A DNA stretch of 64,000 bases from an uncultured Bacteroidales bacterium (GTDB lineage Bacteria > Bacteroidota > Bacteroidia > Bacteroidales > Paludibacteraceae), in assembly GCA_900316845.1 (NCBI GenBank), contig ONEG01000006.1, forward strand, positions 424-64,423, in the 5' to 3' direction. The notes beneath the pieces are model-generated. The model searched no databases, was not told the DNA's origin, and saw nothing but the letters and a program-made list of their open reading frames with translations. The position numbers were made by a program, and so were the translations under genes. Below, one piece after another: positions 25,952-47,231 of this stretch. The number at the start of each line of letters is the position of its first letter. The stretch's first letter is position 1.

Positions 25952-25977
25952 ACTTATGCGCGTTTAAAATTTTTTTT

Positions 25978-26049
25978 CGGCAAAGGTAATACTTTATTTT
26001 GGGATTAAAAAATAGAAGTTCTTATTAGCCCTAATTAGCCCAATAAAAG
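25978..26049. repeat. cassette junction/promoter element, copy A (contains GCCCTAATTAGCCC)
   Basis: Reads cggcaaaggtaatactttattttgggattaaaaaatagaagttcttattagccctaattagccc. It is homologous to copies at 31392 and 42281. A perfect 16-bp inverted repeat pairs 26005..26020 with 26072..26087. Confidence 0.85.
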
Positions 26050-26153
26050 TTATTTTTTTTCATTTTTTATTAACTTCTATTTTTTAATTTAAAACCTTTT
26101 TATTACTTTTGCGGCGAAAATTCAGTTTTACAATTTAAAATCAGGAGGTAGAT

Positions 26154-26588
26154 ATGGAAAAGAAATTCAGTGAATGGTTAGCAGAAAATTACGGCAAGAC
26201 GGTCACCAAGTCTTTAAAAGGTTCTCAAAAGTGCTTTGAGTCCTTGTCCGCCGATGAGGATCTGAATGACATGTGTCTCATGGAACTGATGGAGCACATG
26301 GCGAACATGGCGGAAAATAACGGCTCTCCAAGACAACAAATCAAGCGCCCAATCATGGCCTTCTACGCCACCGAATTAGGTAATCGGTTGGACATCACTC
26401 CGTTGCAGGTATTCTTGCTCGCGGAGTTTGTAGACCAGTTTCCCGACGATAGTATTGAGACGAAGCAACTGGCAAAGAACCTCGGTTGCAGCAATCTTTC
26501 CATCATGTCATGTTATCAGGATATTGCCGTCCTGCGCGATAAGAAGTATCTCTCCGAGCGCAGATATAATAAAAACAAAGTGGTGTGA
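26154..26588 (+). CDS. N-terminal (winged-helix-like) fragment, possibly the 5' part of the downstream AAA+ ATPase gene
   Basis: Has a TACTTTTG box at 26104..26111 and an AGGAGG 5 nt upstream of the ATG. It ends at a TGA that is in frame with the next ORF. Confidence 0.55.
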   Translation: MEKKFSEWLAENYGKTVTKSLKGSQKCFESLSADEDLNDMCLMELMEHMANMAENNGSPRQQIKRPIMAFYATELGNRLDITPLQVFLLAEFVDQFPDDSIETKQLAKNLGCSNLSIMSCYQDIAVLRDKKYLSERRYNKNKVV

Positions 26589-26660
26589 TACCAGATCCCT
26601 ATCCGTGTCATTACTGCGTTTCAGGCAAACCAAAATGTAGAGCCTTTGGACTATAGCAAT

Positions 26661-27899
26661 ATGAACGGAGATCAGCTGATGGACGAGCTTTTCCAAGTGA
26701 TATCCTCCTATCGGAGTGATGACATCGATATACACGAAGCCTACGAAACCACTTCTGCTATGATTGCAGCCAATATGCAGCTTGGTTTCTGCCGCCAAAT
26801 AAACGAATACTCCCTTTCCAAAGAGAGTTGGATAATTCTTGTCTATGTCTGCACGGGTTACTATTACAGCCCGAAATTTACGATGGATAGTGATGAGTTC
26901 CGGGAGTTTTTTGATATGCGTTGCGGTCTTTCGCAGCTGCGACTTTTCCGCAGTAACAAGCACGAACTGCTCACAAAATCGATTCTAGAACCCGCCGGAG
27001 GAGAACTGGCTAATGCGAATGAGTGGTGCCTTTCACGCCGCGCAGCCAACGATCTGATGAGCGAACTGTGTCCTGTTACGGCGAAAAGCACCAAACAAGG
27101 CGTGATTGATGCGGAAAGTATCGGCAAGAAGGCTCTGTTCTACCCGACAAAGACCACCAGACAGGTTTCTGAGTTGGAGAGTTTGCTCTCGACGGAGAAG
27201 TTCCAACAAGTGCAGGAGAGCTTGGAGGCGCATGGTATGCGCAAAGGTTTCGCGTGCCTTTTCTATGGTACGCCCGGAACAGGAAAGACCGAGACCGTTC
27301 TGCAAATAGCCCGAAAAACGGGCCGCGATATCATGCAGGTAGATATGTCGCAGATGCGCGACAAGTACGTCGGTGAAAGCGAGAAGAACGTGAAGCAGAT
27401 CTTCACGCGTTACCGCCGGATTTGCAAAGAGAGTGATCAGACGCCTATTCTCCTCCTCAATGAAGCGGACGCCCTGCTCGGCGTGCGTATGACGAATGTG
27501 GAGCACTCGGTGGATCAGATGGAGAACACGATGCAGAATATCCTGTTGCAGGAAATGGAGAACTTCGACGGCATCCTGATTGCGACAACCAACCTTACGC
27601 AGAATCTGGATGGAGCGTTCGACCGTCGGTTCCTCTACAAAGTAGAGTTCCTCAAACCCACACCGGAGGAGAGCCGGCATATCTGGCAAGCCATGTTGCC
27701 GGAAATCAGCGAAGAGGATGCTTGGACACTCGCGAAGCAGTATGCTTTCTCCGGCGGCCAGATTGAAAATATTGCCCGCAAACAGATAGTGAACTCTATC
27801 CTCTTTCCTGAGGAAGGCAGAGATCTGAACAAAATCCGCCAGGCTTGTGACAGCGAGTATCTGAACAAAAAACAAACCCGCCCCATCGGCTTTTGCTGA
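26661..27899 (+). CDS. AAA+ ATPase (classic AAA clade)
   Basis: Walker A FYGTPGTGKTE, Walker B ILLLNEADAL, and a second region of homology ending FDRRF. The frame is open back to the TGA at 26586 (TTG at 26646, ATG at 26661). Confidence 0.8.
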   Translation: MNGDQLMDELFQVISSYRSDDIDIHEAYETTSAMIAANMQLGFCRQINEYSLSKESWIILVYVCTGYYYSPKFTMDSDEFREFFDMRCGLSQLRLFRSNKHELLTKSILEPAGGELANANEWCLSRRAANDLMSELCPVTAKSTKQGVIDAESIGKKALFYPTKTTRQVSELESLLSTEKFQQVQESLEAHGMRKGFACLFYGTPGTGKTETVLQIARKTGRDIMQVDMSQMRDKYVGESEKNVKQIFTRYRRICKESDQTPILLLNEADALLGVRMTNVEHSVDQMENTMQNILLQEMENFDGILIATTNLTQNLDGAFDRRFLYKVEFLKPTPEESRHIWQAMLPEISEEDAWTLAKQYAFSGGQIENIARKQIVNSILFPEEGRDLNKIRQACDSEYLNKKQTRPIGFC

Positions 27900-27920
27900 T
27901 GCGGCGGGGGTTGGTGACGA

Positions 27921-28160
27921 TCACGCTAAGAGCATTTCTGCATCGATTGTCTCACAATGGATGATGTCGTGCAGATAGGTTTCCATCTTGGCTCGAGTAG
28001 TCTCATCCATGTGTATTTCCGGCAGGAGAGATAGAATCTCTTCTGCTGTTTTTTTTGCAGAGGTATCATCTACACTATCCGATAGACAGTCATTCACCCC
28101 GCGTAGCAGATACCATAAAAGACCGTTGTTATAAACGACTTGAAGAAGTTCTTTTGTCAT
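27921..28160 (-). CDS. small hypothetical protein (79 aa), paralogous to the N-terminus of the 33071..33658 product
   Basis: ATG at 28160 overlaps the hydrolase stop (ATGA). It shares LLWY...G...LP...DE(T/A)TR motifs with the 195-aa protein. Confidence 0.5.
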   Translation of the reverse strand: MTKELLQVVYNNGLLWYLLRGVNDCLSDSVDDTSAKKTAEEILSLLPEIHMDETTRAKMETYLHDIIHCETIDAEMLLA

Positions 28161-28798
28161 AAGTTTCCAAATAGAATATTCTTGATTTGTTTGGCGGCTT
28201 GTTCGTTGCAGCGATGCCCGAATTTGGCATTCCAATAGATCTCATAGCCCAAGGATTCCAAGATAGCTGCGTTTTTCTTCGAGAACTCACGCCCAATCAG
28301 TTCGTCGTCCGTGGAGAATAATGCAATATTCCGTGTTCAGGGAATAGGCGTATGGGTCTCGCGGAATGTAATAAACTGGCGTATCATCGGTTCGTCAATA
28401 GTATATTCCGTCTCGCCATTCTCCCGTGGTTGCAGATAGGGATGCTTGCCATAGCCAATCTTACGAAGCACCCGCTCTATCTCAATACACGGATTGACGG
28501 CTACTTTGATGGCATTCGGACTGTTGACATACATTGCCAACAATCCGCCCATCGATGTGCCGGCAATCAGAGCCGGCTGGAATGCAGCAACCCACTCATT
28601 CAATATATCTGATGATTCAAACGGGTTATGCGTTATTTCCGGCGACAGCCATTCATAAGCATCCAAACTGCGCGCCAGAGAGGATTTCGTTCCAGACGCC
28701 GCGCTGGATCCTAAGCCGTGAATATATAGTGCGTACGGCTTTTGTGCCGGAGTGCCATAATAGAAAGATTTATTCATTTCATCAAATAACATAAGCAA
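28157..28798 (-). pseudogene. YqiA/YcfP-like alpha/beta hydrolase interrupted by one in-frame TGA (28337..28339)
   Basis: The N-terminal part has YIHGLGSS and the nucleophile elbow GTSMGG. After the TGA the same frame continues TRNIALFSTDDELIG...KFGHRCN, supplying the Asp and His of the triad, and reaches a stop at 28157. Confidence 0.7.
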
Positions 28799-29356
28799 TT
28801 AAAACGCATAGCCCGTTAGTTCTGGGTTGCGGAGTGATTCATGTTGTGCGAGTTGACAGAACCAATATAAAGCCTCATCCTTATCGCAGCAGCGTTCATC
28901 CTTGGCAAGGATCTCCGCCAAGAACAGCTGACCACGCTGCTCTCCTTGTGTAGCTGCCTCTTTCAGCCACGACAAAGCGTCAGACAAATTAGGTTCTGTT
29001 CCGACTCCTTTGTACAAACACATTCCTACTGCTGTCATCGCTTCTGCGCATCCTCGGTTAGCCGCTTTGCGATACCATGCAAAGGCCAGTTTCTCATCTT
29101 TGGCATCTGCGACTTTCCCTCCGAGACAGCCTGTCTCATGGATGACTCCCATATTGTATTGTGCGGTCGGGAATCCCTGTTCTGCCGATAAGCGAATCAA
29201 TTCAAACGGGTCTTCATTAACTTCCACACCATCCGGCAATTGAGAGTTCAGAATCCAAATCCCCAATAAGTTTTGGCTCAAGGCATTCCCTTCCCTGGCT
29301 CGCTTCAGCGTACCTTCAAAGGTAGATATTTCATTATCATTCTCTTGGGTCGTCAT
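28799..29356 (-). CDS. Sel1-repeat (SLR) protein
   Basis: Repeated A..WY.KAA..G...A pattern, for example AFAWYRKAANRGCAEAMTAVGMCL and ALSWLKEAATQGEQRGQ. Confidence 0.85.
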   Translation of the reverse strand: MTTQENDNEISTFEGTLKRAREGNALSQNLLGIWILNSQLPDGVEVNEDPFELIRLSAEQGFPTAQYNMGVIHETGCLGGKVADAKDEKLAFAWYRKAANRGCAEAMTAVGMCLYKGVGTEPNLSDALSWLKEAATQGEQRGQLFLAEILAKDERCCDKDEALYWFCQLAQHESLRNPELTGYAF

Positions 29357-29362
29357 TTGTAT

Positions 29363-29839
29363 TCACTTTTGGCGTTTCTCAAAGCATTTTGTTACTTCCT
29401 GCGGCATGATTTCTTCGTAGCAATCCACGAAGATACGCATGTAATATTCCTGGCTGACAATATGGACAAATACGCTGTCCAGTGCCGATTCGGTGCGATT
29501 CAGTTGCTTAACAAACTCCCCGGAAGCACCTGAGCGCAGAGGCAAAGTTTGCTGATGCAGGTAGGTCTTGGCGTTCTGCAATCGATGCCAGTATCTTGCT
29601 GAATATTCGGGCGGGAAGTTGGGATGTATTTGTGCTCCTATATCTTCCGCCCAGTCGCAGTTGTACGGGCGGTAATAAAGCGTGTCTATCAATGCCCAAT
29701 CTACCGTTGAGCAATTATAAAAGTTCTGCAGAACAGTTTCCGAAGTCTGCTGCTGGCATGGACGGGAACAACTGACCAACACCAATAAGGCAATCAGCAG
29801 AAGTTCCGATACGACTTTTTTTGAAAATTTATAGTTCAT
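29363..29839 (-). CDS. hypothetical lipoprotein
   Basis: The internal Met gives the signal peptide MNYKFSKKVVSELLLIALLVLVSC. Confidence 0.55.
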   Translation of the reverse strand: MNYKFSKKVVSELLLIALLVLVSCSRPCQQQTSETVLQNFYNCSTVDWALIDTLYYRPYNCDWAEDIGAQIHPNFPPEYSARYWHRLQNAKTYLHQQTLPLRSGASGEFVKQLNRTESALDSVFVHIVSQEYYMRIFVDCYEEIMPQEVTKCFEKRQK

Positions 29840-30482
29840 AGGTGTTAATCTTCCCCAAAGGTATATTGCACATTTGTTTTTCCGCACCATTAGGAATAAA
29901 GACTTGTTTCAGGTTCGGGATGTTCGAGAAACTATTATCGCCTATCTCACGCAGAGACGATGGAAAAGTTATTCGTTCCAGTTTGTCATCATACCAGAAT
30001 GCGACTTTTTCTACACGCTTCACTCCATCCGGAATAATGAGTTCTCTACGCCTGAACAGGCTTCGCAGCAAGGTCGTTCCATCTTGAGTCAACACCAACC
30101 CGTCTTGTACTCTGAGATGCGGATTGTGCCTATCAATCGTAATGGAATGCAACTTGGGGCAACAACGGAAATGCCAGTTGAGCAAGTATTGCACCCCTTT
30201 CCCTATATATACACTACGGAGGTTAGGCAGGTGTGTAAATTCATCCTCATCAATATATTCGATTGTATCCGGGAAAACCAAATGCTGCAACGTACGCGGA
30301 CACTTGTATGCCCCAAGTTCCACGGAAGTGATGGCATAACGCACTCCTTCTATATTTACAGAGGAGGGGATTCGGTAAGTCTTGCACCTACCGATATGCC
30401 CATGTTTAATCCAGACGGTATGGTCGTTATCGTCTAATAGATAAACGTATCGACCTATTCTGTATTCTCTCCTTTCTGTCAC
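29829..30482 (-). CDS. BspA-type leucine-rich repeat protein
   Basis: Repeated patterns such as IPSSV..I...AF..C..L..V.FP.SL..IG..AF, e.g. ITFPSSLREIGDNSFSNIPNLKQVFIPNG. Confidence 0.75.
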   Translation of the reverse strand: MTERREYRIGRYVYLLDDNDHTVWIKHGHIGRCKTYRIPSSVNIEGVRYAITSVELGAYKCPRTLQHLVFPDTIEYIDEDEFTHLPNLRSVYIGKGVQYLLNWHFRCCPKLHSITIDRHNPHLRVQDGLVLTQDGTTLLRSLFRRRELIIPDGVKRVEKVAFWYDDKLERITFPSSLREIGDNSFSNIPNLKQVFIPNGAEKQMCNIPLGKINTYEL

Positions 30483-30485
30483 ACT

Positions 30486-31325
30486 TTATTTTCCCCAGCC
30501 GGCATCTTTGAGTTTTTTGACGATCAACTCAGGACTTTCCCATACATCCACATAAGGAATGCCTTCGCAAAGGAATCGTTTGTCTTTTTCCGACAATTCT
30601 TTGGAAAGTAGTCCTATGAGATACAAGCGGCTCCCTTTGTATTGGTGAGATTCATAGCAATTCAGCTCAATTTCCTCAACATACGTAACTGCTGCAGCAT
30701 GCAAAATAATGGACTTGCTCCAGAATTCATCCCGCCGGCTCCCATCATTGTTAAAACGAGGCGCCTCTGTCAATCTAACCAACTTGCCATCAGCCGGCTC
30801 TTCATTGGGTTGAGGAGCACGGAAGAACAGATGATTGTTTTTCGCCTTGTCTGTGCCTTCTATCTTCACATTCTCGTAATAGTTGTTGATATAAAAATCA
30901 TAATTCTTAGCTACTATGGAGTCTCTTTCGTCAATGCGCAGTAATTCTATTTCATCTTCAAATCGAATCTCTTTTCTGCAATACTCATCCCCTAAAGATA
31001 TACCGTATTTGTCAGGATTATAACTATTGGCCCATTTGAAAATGTAATACGTTTTTCTCCACCATCTAAAATCTATTTTCTTCTCTCCGCCTTTGGTAAA
31101 AATCACCCCGTCTGACTCCTTTACTGCAGCCTCGTACTTACTACCGATACTGTAGAGCGGGGAACAAAAAACCTTTGCATTCTTATATTCATTGCGAAAC
31201 TCCTTTTCTATTTCTATTACCGAATAAGGAGAGATGCGCTGATCTATGCCATCCACTTGGCAGATGTCCTTACTACACGCATCATAATTGAGCAGCTTAG
31301 ATGGGATTTTTAGTAGATTTTCCAT
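30486..31325 (-). CDS. hypothetical protein (279 aa)
   Basis: First ORF downstream of cassette promoter copy B. No motif recognised. Confidence 0.55.
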   Translation of the reverse strand: MENLLKIPSKLLNYDACSKDICQVDGIDQRISPYSVIEIEKEFRNEYKNAKVFCSPLYSIGSKYEAAVKESDGVIFTKGGEKKIDFRWWRKTYYIFKWANSYNPDKYGISLGDEYCRKEIRFEDEIELLRIDERDSIVAKNYDFYINNYYENVKIEGTDKAKNNHLFFRAPQPNEEPADGKLVRLTEAPRFNNDGSRRDEFWSKSIILHAAAVTYVEEIELNCYESHQYKGSRLYLIGLLSKELSEKDKRFLCEGIPYVDVWESPELIVKKLKDAGWGK

Positions 31326-31391
31326 ATGCTATTAAATTTTTAAAGTTTCGCCCCCTTCTTTGTTCGGCATTGGGGCACTTTCCGATTTTGC

Positions 31392-31477
31392 GCGGCAAAG
31401 ATAATACTTTATTTTCAAATAAAAAAATAGAAGTTAATCTTTTTTGCAATAAGCCCTAATTAGCCATAAAGGTATTA
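31392..31477. repeat. cassette junction/promoter element, copy B
   Basis: Reads gcggcaaagataatactttattttcaaataaaaaaatagaagttaatcttttttgcaataagccctaattagccataaaggtatta. The -7 box TATCTTTG is the complement of 31396..31403. Confidence 0.9.
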
Positions 31478-31501
31478 ATTTTGCACTTTTAATGAAAAAT
31501 A

Positions 31502-31533
31502 TTTGCACAATTCATTTTATTTTTGTAATTTTG
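31502..31533 (+). promoter_or_regulatory. Bacteroidota-type promoter (TTTG-N20-TAATTTTG) for abiEi/abiEii
   Basis: TTTG lies at 31502..31505 and TAATTTTG at 31526..31533, with the ATG at 31595. Confidence 0.65.
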
Positions 31534-31594
31534 CAGCGGATTTGTTTCTATAGTGTAACAATATCATCACATTACAGAAATAAAACGCGCATTT

Positions 31595-32212
31595 ATGACT
31601 TATCAATCGTTTTATAATCAGTGGCATCATTTGGCTTGTTTTTCTATCACACAAGTGAGGGCAATATATCCGACATTTAACCGCCGGAACTATTCCGAAT
31701 GGCAGAAAGCGGGCTATATCGTTCCTTTGCGTCAAGGATGGTACGCCTTTGCGGATTATGTGAACAAGCCGGATTACGCACGCTATTTAGCGTCAAAGAT
31801 CTATACCCCATCGTATATCAGCCTGCATACCGCCTTGTCCTTTTACGGCATTATCCCGGAAGCAGTGGTAGCCATTACGAGTATCACTACGCGCAAAACA
31901 GCTCAGTTTGAGAACGTCTTTGCGTCTTACAGCTACCAAACAATCAAGCCTTCTCTGTTCTGGGGATATGAGCCCAAGCAACTATCCGACGGAAAGACCT
32001 ATCTATTAGCCACGCCGGAGAAAGCGCTGATTGACCTGCTTTACCTCTATCCGCAGTATTCGACGGAAGAAGAGATGCGTGAGTTGCGTCTGGATGAAGA
32101 TTTCATGCACAACGAGTTAGATAAGGAACGGCTTATCGAATATTCTACTCGCATTGGAAGTCCGATAATCACCAAGCGGGTACAACTCTTGCTCAAAACA
32201 CACGGATTATGA
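31595..32212 (+). CDS. AbiEi-like antitoxin / transcriptional regulator (type IV TA)
   Basis: The N-terminal wHTH-like region and the YISLHTALSFYGIIPE motif are typical of AbiEi_4-type proteins. It has a 4-nt ATGA overlap with the next gene. Confidence 0.8.
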   Translation: MTYQSFYNQWHHLACFSITQVRAIYPTFNRRNYSEWQKAGYIVPLRQGWYAFADYVNKPDYARYLASKIYTPSYISLHTALSFYGIIPEAVVAITSITTRKTAQFENVFASYSYQTIKPSLFWGYEPKQLSDGKTYLLATPEKALIDLLYLYPQYSTEEEMRELRLDEDFMHNELDKERLIEYSTRIGSPIITKRVQLLLKTHGL

Positions 32213-32991
32213 TTGATTTAACATACATACGCGGTTTCTATCCGCCGCAGATTGCCAATAATGCCAACTTTCAGAAGCATTTGCTCAAGGAATACATTGA
32301 GTGTCTGGCAATAGAATGGATTTCACAGTCGGCGTGGTCGGACAAGTTGGCTTTTATCGGCGGCACGAACTTACGGCTGATACAGGGTATTGACCGTTTC
32401 TCCGAAGATTTGGATTTTGATTGCAAGAACCTGAGCCAAGAGGATTTCGTCCAAATGACGGATGGTTTAATGCGCTATCTGACGCTACAGGGTTTAACGG
32501 TCGAGGCACGCGATAAAGAGAATCCGAACTTGACGGCTTTCCGTCGAAATGTCTATTTTCCGGAACTGCTCTTCTCGCTCCAACTAACGGGGCATCGGGA
32601 AGAACGTTTCTTAATGAAGATCGAGGCGCAAGACCAAGGTATCAGTTATCCGCGTGAAATGGCGACAATCAGTCGCTTAGGTTTTTATTTCCCAGTTCCT
32701 GTTCCAACGATTAGCATTCTCTTGTCCATGAAACTATCGGCTCTGTTGACTCGTCAGAAAGGCCGTGATTTTTACGATGTCCTTTTCTTGTGGCAACGCA
32801 CAAAGCCGGATTACGCATTCCTAAAGCAACGCCACGGCATAGAAAACGAGGAGCAGTTACGTACGCAACTCCAGGAAACCGTCGCTCATACGGACCTCAA
32901 AACCAAGCAGCGTGATTTTGAGCATCTGCTCTTTGAGCCCCGCAAAAGCGAGCAGATTCTTCATTTCCTGGAGATAATGGGAATAGCGTAG
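32209..32991 (+). CDS. AbiEii/AbiGii nucleotidyltransferase toxin (DUF1814)
   Basis: Contains the nucleotidyltransferase motif FIGGTNLRLIQGIDRFSEDLDFD. Confidence 0.85.
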   Translation: MIDLTYIRGFYPPQIANNANFQKHLLKEYIECLAIEWISQSAWSDKLAFIGGTNLRLIQGIDRFSEDLDFDCKNLSQEDFVQMTDGLMRYLTLQGLTVEARDKENPNLTAFRRNVYFPELLFSLQLTGHREERFLMKIEAQDQGISYPREMATISRLGFYFPVPVPTISILLSMKLSALLTRQKGRDFYDVLFLWQRTKPDYAFLKQRHGIENEEQLRTQLQETVAHTDLKTKQRDFEHLLFEPRKSEQILHFLEIMGIA

Positions 32992-33024
32992 AATTTTGGA
33001 AACGATTTCAAAGATCACATTTTA

Positions 33025-33062
33025 TTTTTTGCAATTCACCCTAATTAGCCATAAAGGCATTA
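33025..33062. repeat. cassette junction element, partial copy D (direct repeat of 31440..31477)
   Basis: ttttttgcaattcaccctaattagccataaaggcatta matches ttttttgcaataagccctaattagccataaaggtatta at 34 of 38 positions. Confidence 0.9.
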
Positions 33063-33070
33063 GGAGGATA

Positions 33071-33658
33071 CTATTTCAATAGTTTCTCATACTTGCTGAT
33101 TGTGTCGTCAAAATACCACAACTTGCCATTGAGTGCTGGGTCATCGGACTTCTGCAGCATCTCCCGTATCGCGAGTGTAACGTCATATGCGGATTGAAGT
33201 TCTTCCTTAGGAGTTCTGGCATCGCAATAGCAATCCAAGCCGTTCGCGAGAATCCATAACAAGTCTATATCATCATCGGGAAAGCGAATAGAAGCCAATC
33301 GTTTTAACAACTCCGGAGTGATTATTCCCGAATCTTCTTTTTCTTCTCCATTTGAGAAAGAAAGGAATCTCTCTCTGTAGGAATAGTACGGGCTTATAGA
33401 CTTCCTGGACATGGCTAAATCTGTTCCGAAATAATCCTGAATTTCCTTCATTTGCCGGACTAACTGCAAGCGGGTTGCTTCGTCAATAGAGGTGTATGGT
33501 AGTACTTGCAGGAAATCATTAATCATTTCTATGGCCTCGAGTTCATTCTTATAGGTGATAATCATATCCGCGTCAAAACCTTCCACCATATACCATAGCA
33601 ACTTGCGCTGATACAAGTTGTCTATGAACTCTTTTATTTTCTGCTCAAACTCTGTCAT
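33071..33658 (-). CDS. hypothetical protein (195 aa)
   Basis: Last ORF of the co-directional cluster. Its N-terminal ~70 aa are paralogous to the 27921..28160 product. Confidence 0.55.
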   Translation of the reverse strand: MTEFEQKIKEFIDNLYQRKLLWYMVEGFDADMIITYKNELEAIEMINDFLQVLPYTSIDEATRLQLVRQMKEIQDYFGTDLAMSRKSISPYYSYRERFLSFSNGEEKEDSGIITPELLKRLASIRFPDDDIDLLWILANGLDCYCDARTPKEELQSAYDVTLAIREMLQKSDDPALNGKLWYFDDTISKYEKLLK

Positions 33659-41251: not shown

Positions 41252-41352
41252 AAATGTTTTAGATTTTTAAAGTTGCACTTACTCTTTTCCGGATTGCCTT
41301 GTCTCACTCACGTTCGAACGAATGCGGCATCATCCAATATATTGTGAGTTTA

Positions 41353-41823
41353 TTATTTTTTGACCATTTGCCATTCTCCTTCTTCATCCGAAAATAGCGG
41401 ATAGTATTGTTCCGCCTCTTCAAGAGGCATGGCTTTGTCTAAATTTTTGACGATAGATTTATATAGATCTAAAAAATTAAGATCGCAATATAGGTACGCA
41501 TCTTTTCCCTTACTATCTTTGTAACAAAGAGGTTGGAATTTATCATCTGGACTTGGTTCATTCCACTCCGCATAAGATTTTAGTTGTATGGTTCCATCAA
41601 AAGCGCCTACAGCCCATATCACGTGGTCTTCCGTATAGAGTACATCTTCACTCTCCGGAGCAAATAAGATGCAGTTTCCTTTTGGATTCTTACTCAAGAT
41701 TTCGTAACACTCGGCTAATGCTTGCAAGCCGATTGCATTAATTTGAGATTTAATCTCCTTTATCTGCGCATAAAGGGGTGTTACCATTTCTTCGAATTTG
41801 TTCGGATTCAGTTTTGTTTCCAT
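41353..41823 (-). CDS. hypothetical protein (156 aa)
   Basis: ORF co-directional with its neighbours. No motif recognised. Confidence 0.5.
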   Translation of the reverse strand: METKLNPNKFEEMVTPLYAQIKEIKSQINAIGLQALAECYEILSKNPKGNCILFAPESEDVLYTEDHVIWAVGAFDGTIQLKSYAEWNEPSPDDKFQPLCYKDSKGKDAYLYCDLNFLDLYKSIVKNLDKAMPLEEAEQYYPLFSDEEGEWQMVKK

Positions 41824-41910
41824 ACTATTATAGTTTTAAAGTTTTACCTAATCTTATATTGATTTTCTCATCTCGCAATGCAAGAACGATTACACGGCTT
41901 TCTCCAATTA

Positions 41911-42249
41911 TTATTCGATTATTAAAAGGAAGTGATACCCCTGTATTTCGATACAATAATTGTATTCTACATCCTCATATTCCATTTCGTCTTCTACTTC
42001 AAATGCCTCTTGAACTATCCATTTTCCTGATTGTAACGGATAGTAGGCACCGCCATAAACGATAGCCAATTCTCCCTGTTCGTTTTCATGGAGTTCGCCA
42101 TCGACCACCACGTTTTCATACGTGTTAGAAATTTGTTTATGCAATTCAGGATTGTCTGCGCGTAAAGCCATTATGGCGTCCTGCTCAATTGCACCTCCTA
42201 TGCAAATAACAAATTTTGAGGATTTTTTCCAAGATGATTTACCATTCAT
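41911..42249 (-). CDS. hypothetical acidic protein (112 aa)
   Basis: First ORF downstream of cassette promoter copy C. Confidence 0.5.
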   Translation of the reverse strand: MNGKSSWKKSSKFVICIGGAIEQDAIMALRADNPELHKQISNTYENVVVDGELHENEQGELAIVYGGAYYPLQSGKWIVQEAFEVEDEMEYEDVEYNYCIEIQGYHFLLIIE

Positions 42250-42280
42250 AAATTTTCTCGTTTAAAATTTTAGTATTCAC

Positions 42281-42360
42281 GCTGCAAAGATAATACTTTA
42301 TTTTCAAATTAAAAAATAGAAGTTATTCTTTTTTTCATTTTGCCATAATTAGCCATAAAG
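42281..42360. repeat. cassette junction/promoter element, copy C
   Basis: Reads gctgcaaagataatactttattttcaaattaaaaaatagaagttattctttttttcattttgccataattagccataaag. By hand alignment it is about 87% identical to copy B. The -7 TATCTTTG is the complement of 42285..42292. Confidence 0.9.
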
Positions 42361-42421
42361 TTTTACTTACTTGCTTACGAGCGACATACGACTCACATAC
42401 GAGACGATAGCGACAAACTAT

Positions 42422-44155
42422 TTATACCAGACACAGTGCTTGTTTTAATAATTGCTTGCGTGCATCAACAAAAGTTCCGAAATCTGCAATATCAATAGAT
42501 AACTTCTTGAAGAAATGATCTTGGGGATATTTGATTTGATCTGCCGGAGTTGCATTGTTTAGCCAATCTTTCAAAGGTTTCTTATTCTTGGAGCGATTGG
42601 TATCATTATCCAATAATTCGAGATTTGCAACGGTGTCATACGTAATTCCGTCGTTCGCAACATTTGCATCGTTAGGAGTATTAAAACTAATTGTACTTAA
42701 TGTTGCAGGAGTAAATGTTGCTTTGGGATGCATATGATCCACATCGTATGCCTGTCCTGCCACCGGAGTCATACACAACCCGCTTGATGCGCCCAAGGCA
42801 TAAATGATATTCAAAACAGGGAACGCGTTCTGTTTCCTGGTTGCTAAAAAATTATCAACATCTGCGTTTGTAATGATTAGTTTAGTATACGTACTTTCAA
42901 TTTCATTATAAGGGAAGTGGTTGTTTGAGGAAGAAGTATTTATGATATCTCTTATATTCTTCAAAATCTCATCCGTCCCTGCTTCATATAAGTTTTTGAG
43001 AATGGCACGATACAGATATTTTCTCATGTCTATATATACGCCACTCATCGCGTTTGTTGATTGGATGGCTGTATGTGAAAGTTTATGCTTGTATATATAA
43101 TAGACCAGAGGAATAACTGCTAATTTTGTAGTCAAGCCTTTTTCTAACAGATGAAAATCAGCCACCAAGTCAAATGCTTTTTCCACACTATCCATTATCA
43201 GTTGGCTATTCATATATATGGATTGCGGGATATTGGGTGTAGTGGCAGTTGCCATAAAATCGGATGGTTGTACACTAAGGGTATTGCCAAATAACATCAA
43301 GAACATCTTGAATACCCAATCTTTATCCACCTCATAGTTCTTTTTTTCCACTAAATCGATTATATCTCCCACATAATCCCGTGCACTAATCGTATAACCA
43401 TTATTTGCCCAACTAACTGTAAGGGCAGACATTAACAGATCACCTTTCTTAAGGACATATCCGCCACTATTAGTACGAACAAAGATTTCCAACACATCAT
43501 CTATATTATTGCTGTTTATCTCGTAATAATTGATCACTGCATTGTTATTTACCAATGCCCACAACAGTTGAATGGAGGTTTGCGCATATTCATTATCTTG
43601 TAATCCTAACTTATTTAATGTGTTTATCATATTAGACCCAGAAAGAATATCTTTCACTTTGAACCATATTTCACCGTTCTTTTGATTGCTCGCCAGTTTG
43701 GTGGGCGTTAAGAATTGAAAATCATATTTCAATTCAGAATTCGTTCGTGGTTTATCTAAACGAAGATATAATTCCGCAGCTTGCTTTCCAGATGGCGTTT
43801 TGTAGGAACCGTATAAACCGATCCATAAACTAGTTAAACGCTGCTGACCGTCTATCACTATCTCATATGATTCATTTGGTATTGCAGCTTTATGATTGAA
43901 TATAGGATTAGGAGTTCCGCTTATATGGTTTGCCGGTAAGAATTGATAAAAAGCTATCGGTTGATTAGGAAGATTATTCGTGTTCCAAAACATCATGGTA
44001 TTTATTGGATAGTCCTGCATCAAACTATCAAACAATTCGCATATATCTCTTGTTTTCCAAACAAATTCGCGCTGCAGAGCAGGGAGGAGAAGTTTATTAG
44101 AAGGTATCTTGCTTAAAACTCCGGTAATTGAATTGCTTAAAATTCTAGGTGTCAT
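42422..44155 (-). CDS. GmrSD-family DUF262 + DUF1524 protein (third DUF262 paralogue)
   Basis: Contains LPALQREFVWK, IDGQQRLTSLWIGL and VRTNSGGYVLKKGDLL. The C-terminal motifs are YDVDHMHPKA and LELLDNDTNRSKN. Confidence 0.85.
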   Translation of the reverse strand: MTPRILSNSITGVLSKIPSNKLLLPALQREFVWKTRDICELFDSLMQDYPINTMMFWNTNNLPNQPIAFYQFLPANHISGTPNPIFNHKAAIPNESYEIVIDGQQRLTSLWIGLYGSYKTPSGKQAAELYLRLDKPRTNSELKYDFQFLTPTKLASNQKNGEIWFKVKDILSGSNMINTLNKLGLQDNEYAQTSIQLLWALVNNNAVINYYEINSNNIDDVLEIFVRTNSGGYVLKKGDLLMSALTVSWANNGYTISARDYVGDIIDLVEKKNYEVDKDWVFKMFLMLFGNTLSVQPSDFMATATTPNIPQSIYMNSQLIMDSVEKAFDLVADFHLLEKGLTTKLAVIPLVYYIYKHKLSHTAIQSTNAMSGVYIDMRKYLYRAILKNLYEAGTDEILKNIRDIINTSSSNNHFPYNEIESTYTKLIITNADVDNFLATRKQNAFPVLNIIYALGASSGLCMTPVAGQAYDVDHMHPKATFTPATLSTISFNTPNDANVANDGITYDTVANLELLDNDTNRSKNKKPLKDWLNNATPADQIKYPQDHFFKKLSIDIADFGTFVDARKQLLKQALCLV

Positions 44156-44265
44156 AATATTATTATTATTTATAAAAGTTTTGCCTACTCTTTTTCGGAT
44201 TTTCGGCTTCCTCCATTAATTGTATTTTTAGGTTGTTTCTGCATCTATATAGTCAAAATCAGACT

Positions 44266-44335
44266 GGCGAGACACTAACGAGAGAGAATCGAGTCGAGAG
44301 TATTTCGAGGGTTTATCGAGGGTATATCGAGAGCA
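44266..44335. repeat. degenerate CGAG-rich tandem repeats in the long leader of the 42422..44155 gene
   Basis: Reads ggcgagacactaacgagagagaatcgagtcgagagtatttcgagggtttatcgagggtatatcgagagc. Confidence 0.7.
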
Positions 44336-44697
44336 TAACATATCCTACTGCACCCTATATATACATAGTATATATCCCGTGATTTTTAATTTTTCTCCTT
44401 CATTCGTAAATAAAAGATCTCTTTTGTTCCGACCATTCTTTCCAAATCCGCTGCAAAGATACAACAAATTTTGCATATTTGCAAGCGTTCGGAGATTTTT
44501 TGGGGCAGAATAGAATAAAATTCTATCTATTTTATGTGGATATAGGGGGTCATGCTCGCATGAAGCGGTCTATAACCACATAAAAGAGGAAGCCTTCTGG
44601 CTCGGCAAAAAAATCGCCGCCGCACAATATATTCCGCAAAATGCGAACGTATTTTCGGTGGGTGACCCTGCTATATCTCATATAGTCCAAAGGCTTG

Positions 44698-45252
44698 TTA
44701 TTTGCCCCTTACTATATATCCGTGCTTGTCCAGATGATTCGTGCGATCCAAAACCGCGTCAATCATAGCTCCGATAAACGCCTTTTGGCACAACGGAAAC
44801 GAAGTTTCTGGAATGTCATTCTGTGCGGATTGTTCCTGCGCTTTCTTGATTCGTTCGGGGCAAAAAACGATTCGGAATGCTTCCCCGTCATAGTACCCGA
44901 GAGACTCCAACGGGATGTATTCAACCTCGGTTACTTCTGGCATTTCTGATTCCTTTGCAAAACGGACACAGAGTGTAGCAACTACCTCGGAAATATCCAA
45001 CCTCTTGTTCCGCATTTCTTTTTCTTCCGGCATACTGAAATATGCCTTAGTAGGATCAAACGCATCCCAGAAATCAGCAACGATGTCTGCCGGAACCGCT
45101 TGCACGATGCTTGTAAAATCGGGTTCCGGAGTTGGCGAGTCTGCCAGACACGAAATGATAAAATCCTGCTCATCGTCAGTAAGTTGTTCCCTACATATTT
45201 TCAGGAGTAAACGATTGTATTCAATAATATCTGCAAGTGTATTATTTTCCAT
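44698..45252 (-). CDS. hypothetical protein (184 aa)
   Basis: The ATG at 45252 lies just downstream of a -7 box (complement of 45264..45271). The longer start at 45294 would lie upstream of that box. Confidence 0.5.
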   Translation of the reverse strand: MENNTLADIIEYNRLLLKICREQLTDDEQDFIISCLADSPTPEPDFTSIVQAVPADIVADFWDAFDPTKAYFSMPEEKEMRNKRLDISEVVATLCVRFAKESEMPEVTEVEYIPLESLGYYDGEAFRIVFCPERIKKAQEQSAQNDIPETSFPLCQKAFIGAMIDAVLDRTNHLDKHGYIVRGK

Positions 45253-45259
45253 GTTTTTT

Positions 45260-45340
45260 GCGACAAAGATACAATAAAAAATCAAAAGACGCAAAGGTTT
45301 GACCCTTTACGCCCTAATTAGCCCCAATTTAACGAGTGAA
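45260..45340. repeat. cassette junction/promoter element, copy E (family 2)
   Basis: Reads gcgacaaagatacaat...cgcaaaggtttgaccctttacgccctaattagccccaatttaacgagtgaa. The 51-nt core at 45290..45340 matches 47181..47231 at 50 of 51 positions. Confidence 0.9.
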
Positions 45341-45400
45341 CGAAACAATCGTTCGAGATAGTTCGAGAAAAGAATTAACGAGTGAATGAATGAGTGAATT
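45331..45400. repeat. ACGA-rich degenerate tandem array
   Basis: Reads aacgagtgaacgaaacaatcgttcgagatagttcgagaaaagaattaacgagtgaatgaatgagtgaatta. Confidence 0.7.
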
Positions 45401-45405
45401 ATTTG

Positions 45406-45681
45406 TTACTCAGTAATATTCTGCCAAATTGCATTACAAGCAAGGCTAAGCAACAATACAATCCATGGCCATTTAAGAGACAAGTATATCTGTGTCTTTC
45501 CACGGACACTCATGATAAAAAGCACGAGTAGCCATATAGCCATCACCGGCCATGGGGGAAAACGATACAAGCTGTCCAAAATGCGGCCATCCAGCAAGAG
45601 CAACATAGCCCGCTGGAAGCCGCACAAAGGACAGCTTATACCAAAGAGTTGCTTATATGCACAGGGCAGTAACAAGAACAC
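45406..45681 (-). CDS. DUF2752 family membrane protein
   Basis: Contains the N-terminal CAYKQLFGISCPLCGFQRA motif typical of DUF2752. Confidence 0.7.
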   Translation of the reverse strand: MFLLLPCAYKQLFGISCPLCGFQRAMLLLLDGRILDSLYRFPPWPVMAIWLLVLFIMSVRGKTQIYLSLKWPWIVLLLSLACNAIWQNITE

Positions 45682-45693
45682 TCTATCGGCCGT

Positions 45694-46008
45694 TTAGGAG
45701 AACATGTTCATCCATTCGAGCCAAGCGAAACCGGCCGTTCCAAGGATAGCCACTACAACTACATAATAAACGATGTAGATTGCGCCGAAAATGATACCAA
45801 TGATGGAAGTAATCCGTCCCGCATTGAGCATGCCATAACCGGAATAGATAGCGGGATTAGCGTGATAAGCAGCCAAGCCTTTGTTAGCCAATACAAGACC
45901 TACAATGCCACAAATGAGGCCTACAAAAAAACATCCGAAAACGAGGGAACAAATTCCCAGCACTAATGCCGCTACGGCATAAGGTGCATTTTGTTGCTGA
46001 GTTTCCAT
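45694..46008 (-). CDS. DUF4190-like small membrane protein (CCC-motif type)
   Basis: Two TM helices, with AALVLGICSLVFGCFFVGLICGIVGLVLA containing three Cys. Confidence 0.65.
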   Translation of the reverse strand: METQQQNAPYAVAALVLGICSLVFGCFFVGLICGIVGLVLANKGLAAYHANPAIYSGYGMLNAGRITSIIGIIFGAIYIVYYVVVVAILGTAGFAWLEWMNMFS

Positions 46009-46038
46009 AAATAGAATAATTAAATTTGATTGGTTATT

Positions 46039-46845
46039 TTACATTTGAGCCGCAGCGGAAGCCATTTTTGCTGCAATTTTCTGGAATCTTGTTGCTTGTG
46101 CGACGCTCATGTTATCGTTTGCAGAGGACAACTTTTCATTCAGTTCATTGCATTCCTGCATTAATGACATCATTTCTGAATAAGCATTAGCATCACCCGC
46201 ATTCACTTTCTTCAAAACTTTGATATACTGATCCATATAGCTCTCATACGAATCCAATATGGCATCCCAATCTTCCGAAGAGCCAGAATTCTCCATATCT
46301 TCATCATCCAAATCTGCCTCTGCCTCTAAGATGTCACGTTCAAGTGCAGACAGGAAATCCTCCTCTTCCGGTTCATCTACATGCAATTCTATGTCGCAAG
46401 AAGCAAAGGACTGTAATACTTCTTTCACTTGTTTGCTATCTGCAAGTATGCACGTAAATTTAACCTTAACCACATCTCCTATTGATGCACTTATAAGGTC
46501 TTTATAGGCAGATGTCATATTTTCGGCGGCAAACTCTACATCCTTGTGATTGATCTCAATATCACGCCCTTCTTTATCTTTTGCTTCAAGAATGAATTTT
46601 TCTACGATATAATCGGGATTTTCATATCTTCTAACTATCTTTAAATCAATCGTTGTTGAAAGTGCGTTTTCTTCCACCGAAATAGTATATGTGCCCGGAA
46701 CAGGTTCAAAGAAATCGTTACTGCCGTACACATCCCCAATATCCTCTGCGTCATCTGTTGTGATCACAAAGGTAGTGCTTTTACTGGAGCAACCGGTTAA
46801 AATAATTGCAAATGCAATTACAAACAAACTAAAATACTTTTTCAT
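46039..46845 (-). CDS. hypothetical lipoprotein with acidic linker and helical C-terminal domain
   Basis: Signal peptide MKKYFSLFVIAFAIILTGC. Confidence 0.6.
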   Translation of the reverse strand: MKKYFSLFVIAFAIILTGCSSKSTTFVITTDDAEDIGDVYGSNDFFEPVPGTYTISVEENALSTTIDLKIVRRYENPDYIVEKFILEAKDKEGRDIEINHKDVEFAAENMTSAYKDLISASIGDVVKVKFTCILADSKQVKEVLQSFASCDIELHVDEPEEEDFLSALERDILEAEADLDDEDMENSGSSEDWDAILDSYESYMDQYIKVLKKVNAGDANAYSEMMSLMQECNELNEKLSSANDNMSVAQATRFQKIAAKMASAAAQM

Positions 46846-46857
46846 ATTGATTAAAGA

Positions 46858-47076
46858 TTAAAAATTTGCTTCCAAAGTGATTTTGTGAAAACGTTCCAAT
46901 TGTTCCATTGTTAGTTCGTTTTCGTCTAACTTTTCCATAATTTTTAACGCTTCTACCTGATCTCCCTTCTTACATGCTTTTTCATACTGATCAAGCAACG
47001 AATCGTTAGAAGGAGTACAAGCAACCATAGCTAAACAAAATAATGCCATGACTGCAAAAATTAACTTTTTTTTCAT
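46858..47076 (-). CDS. small lipoprotein (72 aa)
   Basis: Signal peptide MKKKLIFAVMALFCLAMVAC. It is the first ORF after cassette promoter copy F. Confidence 0.55.
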   Translation of the reverse strand: MKKKLIFAVMALFCLAMVACTPSNDSLLDQYEKACKKGDQVEALKIMEKLDENELTMEQLERFHKITLEANF

Positions 47077-47147
47077 ATTATTAATAGTTTTAAAGTTTTG
47101 CCTACTCTTTTAAGGATTTTCGGCATCTTCCATTTCATTGACAATTT

Positions 47148-47231
47148 GCGAGCGCAAAGATACAACAAAATAACGAAAGGCGCAAAGGTTTGACCCTTTA
47201 CGCCCTAATTAGCCCCATTTTAACGAGTGAA
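47148..47231. repeat. cassette junction/promoter element, copy F (family 2)
   Basis: Reads gcgagcgcaaagatacaac...cgcaaaggtttgaccctttacgccctaattagccccattttaacgagtgaa. The -7 TATCTTTG is the complement of 47155..47162. Confidence 0.9.

Follow-up and report, generated by a model that had tools for sequence, protein, structure and literature searches.

Six similar short sequences, all in one orientation, punctuate a variable gene region in the 64,000-nucleotide stretch of DNA analysed here (the window), which comes from an uncultured rumen Bacteroidales bacterium. A first-pass annotation read them as the junction elements of an integron-like or rAID-like array, in which promoter-bearing cassettes would be separated by a conserved recombination site. 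The locus raises the question of what these sequences do: mark the points at which cassettes are gained and lost, or serve the promoters beside which they lie.

In this study, we examine the distribution, conservation and spacing of a 12-bp element common to the copies, the modules that carry it, and the junctions of the surrounding island in related loci. The 12-mer, an undescribed motif, resembles a regulatory site common to re-used promoter modules more closely than it does an integron-type recombination site. What stands of the array reading is a hypervariable, cassette-like island to which the motif is confined and in which some indels end at copies; what lacks support is the recombination system: no recombinase was detected in the window or in most of the related loci, which were searched, and most junctions lack the motif.

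Results

The element is confined to a low-GC island

The 12-mer is GGCTAATTAGGG in its minus-strand form and CCCTAATTAGCC in its plus-strand form. With at most one mismatch, CCCTAATTAGCC occurs six times in the window, always on the plus strand, where 0.21 matches are expected by chance and none of 100 shuffles reached six or more, so that the six same-strand copies first described are borne out. Read on the minus strand, these are copy A (26029..26040), copies B (31454..31465) and E (45312..45323), copy C (42343..42354), copy D (33039..33050) and copy F (47203..47214). Only copy C deviates, by one mismatch (variant GGCTAATTATGG; plus strand CCATAATTAGCC). All six lie inside a low-GC island at approximately 25.4-47.3 kb (31-47% GC in 2-kb windows, versus about 52% in the flanks), so that there are six copies in about 22 kb and none in the other 42 kb or so of the window; their common direction follows that of the island's genes. 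The similarity proposed for B and C (about 87% over 80 nt) is confirmed, at a measured 90% over 81 nt. For E and F the identity over 81 nt is 91%, and the 50 of 51 matching core positions claimed for them came to 48 of 51 in an E/F core segment of our own choosing.

A generic promoter-upstream motif of core genes would have undone the array reading, and scanning the window and related genomes showed the 12-mer to be island-specific. Genome-wide, the motif-plus-promoter pattern had four matches in RUG456 and three in UBA4333, each set on one contig. The 12-mer was absent from about 107 unrelated Bacteroidota metagenome loci, and among 185,579 species representatives the motif-plus-promoter pattern occurred in none from Bacteroides, Parabacteroides or Prevotella.

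Conservation and spacing were assessed on a non-redundant set of 47 copies in related loci (336 kb, numbered with the prefix L), a sample of which part was ascertained through an exact motif match. Among the copies retrieved without the motif (by way of the c1 protein described below or the P1 21-mer, or because a locus held a second copy), 14 were exact and seven had one mismatch, as tallied from the copy table; these mismatches all fall at positions 8-11, and the first seven bases, GGCTAAT, are invariant. Whole modules are approximately 85-93% identical between copies, and the 12-mer, having diverged by about 3% per site, has changed several times less than the remainder of the module. At the distance of L149-152, where c1 is 59% identical, the 12-mer is exact, the adjoining hairpin has a compensated change and the -7 box is different. 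Most copies match at 12 of 12 positions, a tighter constraint than many operators show.

The element lies at two fixed distances from the promoter box

Promoter modules of three types, P1, P2 and D, have the 12-mer at their upstream end; it and a TAnnTTTG box are their only common features, the types being otherwise unrelated. On the minus strand the gap between the two is 40 nt at A, E and F and 50 nt at B and C, in agreement with the 40-60 nt originally placed between the element and a TA(T/C)CTTTG -7 block at these five copies. In the larger sample the gap is 40 nt in 27 of 47 copies and 50 or 51 nt in 15; together, 42 of the 47 thus hold a fixed position and orientation to a core promoter at several operons, as operator or regulon sites do, and all 47 share one orientation relative to the promoter. 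The two gap classes differ by one helical turn, and P1 alone occurs in both. D-type copies have no canonical promoter; at copy D, which is directed into the AbiEii gene at its 3' end, GATCTTTG stands at 22 nt.

The modules are promoter regions of high similarity in front of non-homologous genes: at least seven distinct first genes follow P1 and at least 11 follow P2, and upstream and downstream contexts around the 12-mer are found in all combinations. P1 copies are 88-93% identical over about 80 nt, including a shared 5' UTR; that of module B is conserved while the genes behind it differ. In four to seven P1 modules the -7 region remains and the 12-mer has been lost through 5' truncation. The -7 block had been taken for a cloned sequence, a view that its distribution does not sustain: the 21-mer AAAATAAAGTATTAYCTTTGC occurs in at least 120 metagenome stretches, and about 110 of the 126 matches listed are in unrelated contexts. 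Judged from these matches, the block is a generic Bacteroidota consensus and no private clone.

P2 modules carry a terminator-like hairpin

Stems of 12 pairs with T-rich tails lie at 47177-47206 (copy F) and 45286-45315 (copy E), with folding z values of -3.0 and -4.0, respectively, and no other site in the region is as good a terminator candidate as these two. The hairpin persists across 21 sequences, among which there are wobble changes and a single compensated change. The 12-mer runs with its last bases into the stem in every one of the 22 P2 copies; the hairpin follows the upstream gene, and the -33 TTTG of P2 sits in the 3' arm. Because the motif abuts a terminator-like hairpin that contains the -33 TTTG, each P2 unit reads as an instruction to stop the upstream transcript and start a new one. 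As intrinsic terminators do, the P2 hairpin combines a GC-rich stem-loop with a T run and lies downstream of a gene. P1 and D modules had no significant structure (z +0.55 to -1.3). In L016 and L025, hairpins of this family serve as terminators without the 12-mer.

Layout and content of the island

The island is a hypervariable region of defence and accessory genes. It begins directly after a conserved Ser/Thr protein kinase gene (47323..48534, minus strand), the C-terminal domain of which is polymorphic between species and which is divergent, wherever a locus covered the region, from the orphan gene c1 (48607..49146, plus strand). The clade-restricted 179-aa c1 protein gave a confident structural model (pLDDT 86.6) with a four-helix N-terminal domain, and no relative in Pfam, PDB-sequence or Foldseek searches. 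On the far side of c1 the neighbours vary between species (FBPase, IspG, Ig_Eae/LpxD). Several anti-phage systems cluster in the island: PADLOC identified AbiEi (E = 1.5e-73), AbiEii (8.1e-100), HEC-05 (8.7e-134), a HEC-06-like protein (6.4e-19) and an IetA-like protein (2.1e-29), and there are three GmrSD_N proteins. Small Sel1 and LRR ORFs and lipoproteins accompany them, and the content differs in almost every related species.

Copy F is the first copy after the kinase gene, a position conserved in more than 14 related genomes. Its P2 module (47155..47235, minus strand) comprises the 12-mer, the hairpin and the -7 box TATCTTTG (47156-47163), and its leader holds a DUF805b RNA motif (47099..47133, minus strand; 48.3 bits against a gathering score of 35.6). 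P2 module E (45264..45344, minus strand), likewise with 12-mer, hairpin and -7 box (45265-45272), drives a 184-aa gene (44698-45252); orthologues of copy E in L011, L013, L018 and L077 precede different genes. The sole island promoter without the 12-mer, of generic type with a TTTGCATATTTGCAA -33 region (44435..44500, minus strand), drives a DUF805b leader and HEC-05/GmrSD (42422-44155). P1 module C (42280..42360, minus strand) drives 41911-42249 and an operon that continues down to about 33071. The D-type module (33009..33062, minus strand) consists of the 12-mer, then ATTGCAAAAAA, then ATAAAATGTGATCTTTG, and is conserved in L005, L027 and L080. P1 module B (31326..31477, minus strand), with a conserved 65-nt 5' UTR, drives a small-ORF operon (27921-31325) for products of 279 aa, LRR_5, 175 aa, Sel1, UPF0227 and 104 aa. 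P1 module A (25978..26056, minus strand), the 40-nt spacing variant, drives 25490-25951, and an inverted P1 promoter copy (26069..26123, plus strand) drives both 26154-26588, whose 144-aa product has a weak HTH match below threshold, and 26661-27899, the IetA-like AAA ATPase. Copy A is the centre of this mirror-image divergent promoter pair, the 49-nt arms of which are 25972-26020 and 26072-26120.

ACGA-rich tandem arrays had also been reported just distal to copies C, E and F. An array of period 8 is present at F (AACGAATG, 8.2 copies, 47222..47287, between the kinase stop codon and copy F) and a weak one at E; at C the repeat finder made no call. More than 15 stretches of the window, its core-gene parts included, hold short-period arrays of a similar kind, several of them checked as intergenic, and the F-side array is a genome-wide repeat type that is not specific to the element.

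Most junctions lie away from the element, and no recombinase was detected

As to whether the element marks cassette boundaries, it does so at two places. The AbiEi/AbiEii module (31478..33024, plus strand) lies between 38-nt direct repeats of B and D, which have the 12-mer at their centre, as an insertion relative to UBA4333, where the site is empty, and pig5.17 holds a 270-nt mini-cassette with the same ends. In comparison with RUG456 there is a HEC-05/GmrSD insertion or deletion whose end falls inside copy C; homology to RUG456 and L077 stops at 42350. Most recurrent breakpoints, in contrast, lack the motif and fall at gene starts or stops (w28171, 33696, 29325 and 25490 are gene boundaries) or at microhomologies (GCAAA and GAAAATAAAGT in L012 and L080). 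At the conserved island edge the junction with variable cargo is downstream of the promoter: L149 and L151, which have identical c1, remain alike through the kinase gene, the 12-mer, P2 and 385 nt more, and diverge only then, which places the 12-mer in the conserved part, away from the cargo junction. Insertions upstream of the 12-mer (c20 in RUG456, YhcG in L013/L153-type loci) are without duplication.

The co-occurring tyrosine or serine recombinase that an array would call for was detected neither in the window nor in the related loci searched, which were most of them. Pfam scans of all sizeable window ORFs returned no recombinase domain, and tblastn of approximate XerD, lambda Int and Hin queries against the window and L001-L028 gave a best E value of 0.087. 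The search took in every covered 5' edge of the array, and none was detected there.

Discussion

From its sequence conservation and placement, the 12-mer is most likely a sequence-specific protein-binding site, operator or activator, at the upstream end of promoter modules that head nearly every island unit, a reading that we hold tentatively, at close to but below an even chance. Its main competitor in our weighing treats the 12-mer as a functionless passenger at the edge of block-copied promoter modules, conserved in appearance because the copies are young. Such copying before unrelated genes is documented (PMC3575422), and both the similarity of the P1 copies, shared 5' UTR included, and the truncated P1 modules that have lost the 12-mer and kept the -7 region agree with it. 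P1, P2 and D, however, share just the 12-mer and the box at quantised spacing, and the 12-mer stays exact at 59% c1 identity despite a changed hairpin and -7 box and diverges far less than the module around it; we therefore consider a passenger unlikely, though seriously to be reckoned with. That the 12-mer is the core of an attI/attC-like site, with a recombinase elsewhere or of a novel kind, and that the island captures promoter cassettes as integrons or rAID arrays do, is quite unlikely. The direct repeats around AbiE with their empty and mini-cassette counterparts, the indel end in copy C, the free combination of contexts, the confinement to a hypervariable array and the palindromic core all speak for it. 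Against it are the recombinase searches, negative in the window and most of the related loci, junctions that mostly lack the motif (those of L012 being microhomologies), the strain-level cargo junction 385 nt downstream and upstream insertions without duplication; the three B/D states can arise by allelic exchange through long homologous flanks, and recombination leaves the helical-phase spacing to the -7 box unexplained. The indels that end at or inside copies (B/D and C) are in turn not predicted by a purely regulatory site, except that similarity ends at module edges by definition. The unusually strict match and the D-type copies, with no canonical promoter, likewise count against the protein-binding reading.

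The 12-mer could also be part of a transcriptional insulator, as a protein roadblock or an aid to the adjacent terminator, so that units are expressed independently. It is invariably placed after one unit ends and before the next promoter, and enters the stem in 22 of 22 P2 copies, but P1 and D modules lack significant structure and the hairpin family terminates without it elsewhere, which makes this very unlikely. Origin-proximal chromosome-organisation sites, parS- or ram-like and in intergenic DNA by chance, would fit one cluster per genome, here within 22 kb beside the cumulative GC-skew minimum and near dnaA; yet distance and orientation to promoters are fixed, and the origin link is not conserved because the c1-side neighbourhood differs between species, and we regard such sites as scarcely probable at all.

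Under the protein-binding reading, a putative clade-specific DNA-binding protein would occupy the site at about -58 or -68 and would co-regulate or insulate the island units. To name c1 as its candidate is speculative and only a guess. Modules may spread and cassettes may shuffle by promoter re-use together with recombination between repeated modules, homologous or microhomology-mediated, and by allelic exchange across conserved flanks. Since most recurrent breakpoints lie at gene boundaries and microhomologies, shuffling can proceed without the motif, and no dedicated site-specific recombinase would be needed.

The arrangement resembles several known systems in part. Like integrons, it has a conserved edge with an outward promoter, then variable co-oriented cargo, and a short repeat between some units. 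An attC site is a palindrome of 57-141 nt located 3' of a promoterless ORF. The present element has 12 bp and is found 40 or 50 nt 5' of the promoter that each unit has for itself, in helical phase with the -7 box, in all of which it is unlike attC or attI sites. Indels touch it only at B/D and C, boundaries being mostly elsewhere; no intI-type integrase was found by Pfam scans of the window ORFs or by tblastn against the window and L001-L028. Class I activator sites such as those of CRP, at -61.5 or -71.5, offer another likeness, being short, partly palindromic motifs at fixed, helically phased distances upstream of unrelated operons, although the "regulon" here is one contiguous island and the motif is asymmetric and nearly invariant.

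With rAID-1 (Ross et al., bioRxiv 10.1101/471110; PMC12247911) the locus shares a Bacteroidales setting, a mostly co-oriented low-GC array, repeated intergenic sequences, some small Sel1/LRR-type ORFs and strain-variable content. In rAID-1, two or more downstream genes point the same way and have a GC of 41% or lower; here the genes are co-directional, and GC is at or below 41% in only part of the island. No XerD-like recombinase was detected at the 5' end, where the kinase gene and c1 form the anchor in at least 14 related loci; unlike in rAID-1, there are many large anti-phage defence genes and no repeats between genes inside operons, and the pattern is absent from Bacteroides, Parabacteroides and Prevotella, genera that carry rAID-1.

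Near-identical promoter regions before non-homologous genes, within a genome and across relatives, have been described as promoter re-use or putative mobile promoters (Nijveen, Matus-Garcia, van Passel; PMC3575422), and the modules here are alike in this respect. They differ in that three unrelated types share a 12-bp motif at a quantised distance within a single hypervariable island, one type having a terminator and another a conserved 5' UTR. Finally, AbiE, GmrSD-like HEC-05 and IetA-like genes between conserved flanking genes, with content turnover between relatives, are as expected of defence islands and hotspots, whereas here a shared cis motif and promoter modules head different systems. 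These suggest that transcription is wired across the whole island, something not described as a general property of defence islands.

Results

The 12-mer is confined to a variable island

The accessory island occupies about 25.4-47.3 kb of the window and is a defence island in that several anti-phage systems are grouped in a variable region: AbiEi/AbiEii, HEC-05/GmrSD, a HEC-06-like GmrSD pair and an IetA-like AAA ATPase. It also carries genes for DUF2779, WG-repeat, lipoprotein, DUF4190 and DUF2752 proteins, and a small-ORF operon with Sel1, LRR_5 and UPF0227 ORFs. The flanks hold the core genes ftsA, lptC, groEL, dnaA, relA and dnaB, plus those for a Mur ligase, pantothenate kinase and FBPase (an exact-protein look-up of the last returned zero records). 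A Ser/Thr kinase gene (47323-48534) directly borders the island start and diverges from c1 (48607-49146, plus strand), the gene of a 179-aa orphan protein. Cumulative GC skew reaches its minimum at about 46-48 kb; dnaA lies at 53279-54649 (minus strand) and dnaB at 61706-63229. Judged by the skew and the position of dnaA, the island probably adjoins the replication origin. A 43-nt sequence 5' of dnaA (54694-54736) has repeats of 84-86% identity in three related loci (L014, L016, L026).

Allowing one mismatch, the 12-mer CCCTAATTAGCC occurs six times in the window, always on the plus strand, with starts at 26029 (copy A), 31454 (B), 33039 (D), 42343 (C, the variant CCATAATTAGCC), 45312 (E) and 47203 (F). 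Only 0.21 copies were expected by chance and no shuffle contained six, so the recurrence is confirmed to be far above chance. The uniform orientation is explained by the leftward majority of island genes alone. All six copies lie within a segment of 31-47% GC between flanks of about 52% GC. The similarity of the blocks around the copies, pointed out in the first-pass annotation, was upheld, B and C being 90% and E and F 91% identical, each over 81 nt. The possibility that the element is a generic motif of core genes was looked for as well; the 12-mer was confined to the island and no copy lay in the window's 42 kb of core DNA, which also rules out a DNA-uptake sequence. The 18-mer CCCTAATTAGCCATAAAG had no match among viral contigs.

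The 12-mer forms the upstream end of three promoter modules

Read in the gene direction as GGCTAATTAGGG, the 12-mer is the upstream end of three distinct promoter modules, and similar modules stand ahead of non-homologous genes, as expected of re-used promoters. In P1 (copies A, B and C, and an inverted copy at 26069-26123) it is followed by CTAATTGCAAAAAAGATTAACTTCTATTTTTTAATTTGAAAATAAAGTATTATCTTTGC, and copy B additionally has a conserved 65-nt leader. In P2 (E and F) it runs straight into the hairpin GGCGTAAAGG-GTCAAA-CCTTTGCGCC and then a T-rich run, the -33 TTTG lying within the 3' arm of the hairpin, 20 nt 5' of TATCTTTG. The D module reads ATTGCAAAAAA-ATAAAATGTGATCTTTG and has no canonical -7 box (TAnnTTTG).

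The F and E hairpins are the top terminator-like sites in 41-49.5 kb (folding z = -3.0 and -4.0). They are kept in 21 related sequences with wobble changes, and distant relatives show one fully compensated change, AAAGG/CCTTT to AATGG/CCATT. Elsewhere in related genomes the same hairpin family serves without the 12-mer as an ordinary terminator. P1 and D had no significant fold, which rules out an RNA-structure role of the 12-mer in these two modules. A sigma-54-type site (tGGC...GGGC) was weighed and discarded by eye, as the spacing is one off, TTGC is lacking and a terminator follows immediately.

Two other features had been read as part of a cassette design. The -7 block, taken for a privately cloned promoter, proved to be a generic Bacteroidota consensus found in unrelated contexts: a metagenome scan with the P1 -7 region, intended as a motif-neutral collection of P1, yielded mostly unrelated Bacteroidota promoters. 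The 21-mer used, AAAATAAAGTATTAYCTTTGC, matched at least 120 metagenome stretches; among the 126 matches listed, about 110 lay in unrelated contexts (gut, freshwater and other samples) and 13 were true P1. ACGA-rich arrays had been noted distal to copies C, E and F; the array at F is real, that at E is weak, and the repeat finder called none next to C. Like arrays recur in more than 15 stretches of the window, core parts included. Tandem repeats of period 7-16 in 2-8 copies (97-131, 4852-4885, 7580-7618, 22060-22097, 25186-25227, 44294-44337, 47222-47287, 51233-51265, 55950-55992 and 63228-63252) occur in core-gene parts and island, were intergenic where checked, and seem to characterise the genome as a whole.

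Other elements accompany island promoters and leaders. The 16-bp perfect palindrome TTTGCATATATGCAAA lies at 25079-25094, with variants near 44469-44484 and 48560-48575, and palindromes of this type fill the -33 region of promoters lacking the 12-mer (DUF1295, HEC-05 and the kinase gene). A permissive Rfam search of the island returned the DUF805b RNA motif and no further family; its hits at 44182-44216 and 47099-47133 (both minus strand; 49.4 and 48.3 bits, above the gathering threshold) lie in the leader regions of genes of the island. Degenerate versions occur at 41259-41305 and 41828-41874, with AAAACTTTAAAA after them, just 5' of start codons inside an operon.

Spacing and conservation of the 12-mer

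Spacing was measured on 47 non-redundant copies drawn from related loci totalling 336 kb. Of these, 27 stand 40 nt from TAnnTTTG and 15 stand 50/51 nt from it; another copy, listed at 30 nt because of a spurious earlier match, has a true gap of 50 nt, which brings 43 of 47 to one of these two spacings. The four D-type copies lack the canonical box. Both spacings, which differ by one helical turn, occur within P1. All 47 copies share one orientation relative to the promoter; with no inverted copy and no transposase, a MITE or IS end is ruled out. Among copies not ascertained by exact motif match, a tally gave 14 exact and seven with one mismatch. Mismatches were confined to positions 8-11, and the first seven bases, GGCTAAT, were invariant. 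Whole modules are 85-93% identical; the greater constancy of the 12-mer points to selection acting on the 12-mer itself. Class I activator sites, as for E. coli CRP, typically lie near -58/-68 on one helix face. From the two spacings we infer that the motif centre would lie near -58 or -68 on a single helix face, a class I activator-like position.

The 12-mer is clade specific and its island is anchored by the kinase gene

The pattern CAAAGRTA-N35-55-CCCTAATTAGCC was scanned across 185,579 species, each represented by one genome. It matched 25 stretches, about 20 of them in uncultured rumen or gut Bacteroidales genomes (RUG, UBA and RGIG 'Paludibacteraceae'); the rest were isolated hits spread over unrelated phyla, a pattern compatible with chance. 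The scan matched no genome of Bacteroides, Parabacteroides or Prevotella. Single contigs of the related genomes RUG456 and UBA4333 carried all of their four and three matches. The exact 12-mer was not found in about 107 unrelated Bacteroidota metagenome loci. These clade-limited matches, and the absence from unrelated loci, show that the 12-mer is specific to this clade and island and is not a generic upstream element. Literature searches with the motif strings gave irrelevant eukaryotic matches only, and neither the motif nor the kinase/c1 anchor was found described.

The order kinase gene, 12-mer, hairpin and promoter, in some cases with one gene inserted after the kinase gene, recurs in at least 14 species-level genomes. 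Loci retrieved through c1 (59-61% protein identity), a route independent of the motif, have the same arrangement: four (L149-152) carry the exact 12-mer soon after the kinase stop codon, and in L153 a YhcG gene is inserted first, followed by the variant GGCTAATTGGGG, hairpin and promoter. In every fetched locus that reaches past the kinase gene, c1 adjoins it divergently. The c1 homologues form 171 clusters; most hits are unnamed as to source, and each of the few source-named ones is a hypothetical protein of Paludibacteraceae. The c1 family is restricted to this clade. By eye, c1 contains an HTH-like pattern (ELSIAISKTTGERISPDTLSRIWG), and its confident AlphaFold model (pLDDT 86.6) has a four-helix N-terminal and a beta-rich C-terminal domain. 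There was no Pfam hit, no PDB relative by profile search and no Foldseek match below E = 0.087, so c1 was not confirmed as a transcription factor and a role as a DNA-binding partner of the 12-mer is speculation; the predicted structure may represent a new fold or a new domain combination.

The first gene 3' of the anchor promoter belongs to at least 11 distinct families, and cargo in other species includes FtsK-like ATPase, InlB-repeat, zinc-ribbon and DUF6175 proteins; one genome has a short island followed by core genes. The loci of UBA4333 (L008, L012, L019) and of RUG456 (L013, L014) do not overlap, and their islands are seen in parts. P-loop ATPase genes of 411-431 aa, AAA_14/DUF4143-like by eye and absent from the window, occupy varied points of related islands (L013:3222-4517 in RUG456, L015, L005:6256-7491), in one case separating the kinase gene from the first 12-mer. 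The 144-aa protein (whose HTH match is weak and below threshold) and the 412-aa IetA-like ATPase at 26154-27899 (plus strand) are separate ORFs in the window and a single ORF of 542-581 aa in L014:2816-4561 and L027:6323-7951; either a frameshift or the splitting of one gene accounts for the difference. Species differ in the C-terminal domain of the kinase, and the array carries an orphan alternative copy: a 175-aa ORF (29363-29890, minus strand) that includes a transmembrane segment and an outer domain and matches residues 236-371 of the kinase of the related genome RUG437 (L010:642-2114) at 67% identity.

Discussion

We tentatively favour, at somewhat short of an even chance, the reading of GGCTAATTAGGG as an operator-like, putative protein-binding site on re-used promoter modules that head the transcription units of the island. 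The 12-mer would mark the upstream end of these modules (in P2, of terminator-plus-promoter modules). The island itself, which carries defence and accessory genes, is hypervariable and anchored by the kinase gene, and belongs to uncultured Paludibacteraceae-like Bacteroidales of the rumen. Its cassettes would be shuffled by recombination, both homologous and microhomology-mediated, and by allelic exchange. That the 12-mer is a functionless passenger of promoter re-use is unlikely, given a constancy exceeding that of the modules carrying it. It is improbable that it acts as an insulator, and that it is an origin-proximal organisation site, despite the probable origin nearby, is scarcely credible.

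The first-pass annotation proposed integron-like or rAID-like cassettes, and the island does have hypervariable cargo and indels at B/D and C. The AbiE module (31478-33024) is flanked by 38-nt direct repeats centred on B and D; the same site holds a single 12-mer and no insert in UBA4333, and in the genome pig5.17 a 270-nt mini-cassette with identical start and end sequences. That unit (L005, 7613-7870) lies between two 12-mers and has its own TTTG/TATCTTTG promoter plus a terminator (GCGG-TTTG-CCGC and a T run). It contains no ORF and could be a cassette for a small RNA. Upstream and downstream contexts around the 12-mer are found in all combinations, and the HEC-05 unit is absent from RUG456, homology restarting at 42350, inside copy C. 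However, the three states of the B/D site are exchangeable by homologous recombination through long conserved flanks, and the most recurrent breakpoints lie at gene starts or stops and are motif-free (some seven cases at 28171, and three to five at each of 33696, 29325 and 25490). Relocation of a 279-aa gene in UBA4333 used microhomology junctions (GCAAA and GAAAATAAAGT) and removed the 12-mer, and genes inserted 5' of the kinase-proximal 12-mer cause no duplication of it. In two strains with identical c1, the shared sequence covers the kinase gene, the 12-mer and P2 and runs on for 385 nt before the cargo diverges, which places the 12-mer inside a conserved platform and not at the junction. 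A recombinase was detected neither by domain searches of the sizeable window ORFs nor by tblastn with XerD, lambda Int and Hin sequences against the window and the related loci L001-L028. That the 12-mer is an integron-like recombination site whose recombinase is encoded elsewhere is quite unlikely. Less probable still is a gene-capture platform with no adjacent integrase, anchored by kinase and c1, in which an unlinked or structurally novel recombinase, possibly c1, inserts promoter-bearing cassettes at the 12-mer as recombination core; such a platform would be a Bacteroidales integron analogue of other site logic, its site lying 5' of each cassette's own promoter.

The expression wiring of defence islands and accessory hotspots is poorly understood. 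Here, one hotspot, starting invariably beside a Ser/Thr kinase gene, sets AbiE, GmrSD-like nucleases, an IetA-like ATPase, putative small immunity ORFs and lipoproteins behind modules with a near-invariant 12-bp site. If that site is an operator, horizontally acquired genes would be co-regulated island-wide through a standard 'plug-in' promoter, and kinase signalling could be tested for a link to the expression of defence genes in an uncultured rumen lineage; if it is a recombination site, a new gene-capture system would be defined. Under either reading the 12-mer is a practical marker for such hotspots in rumen and gut metagenomes. Like integrons and rAID-1, the island has a conserved edge, an outward promoter and variable, co-oriented cargo, but it is not a member of either family as defined. 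We rate it as fitting known kinds, those of re-used promoters and of defence-island hotspots.
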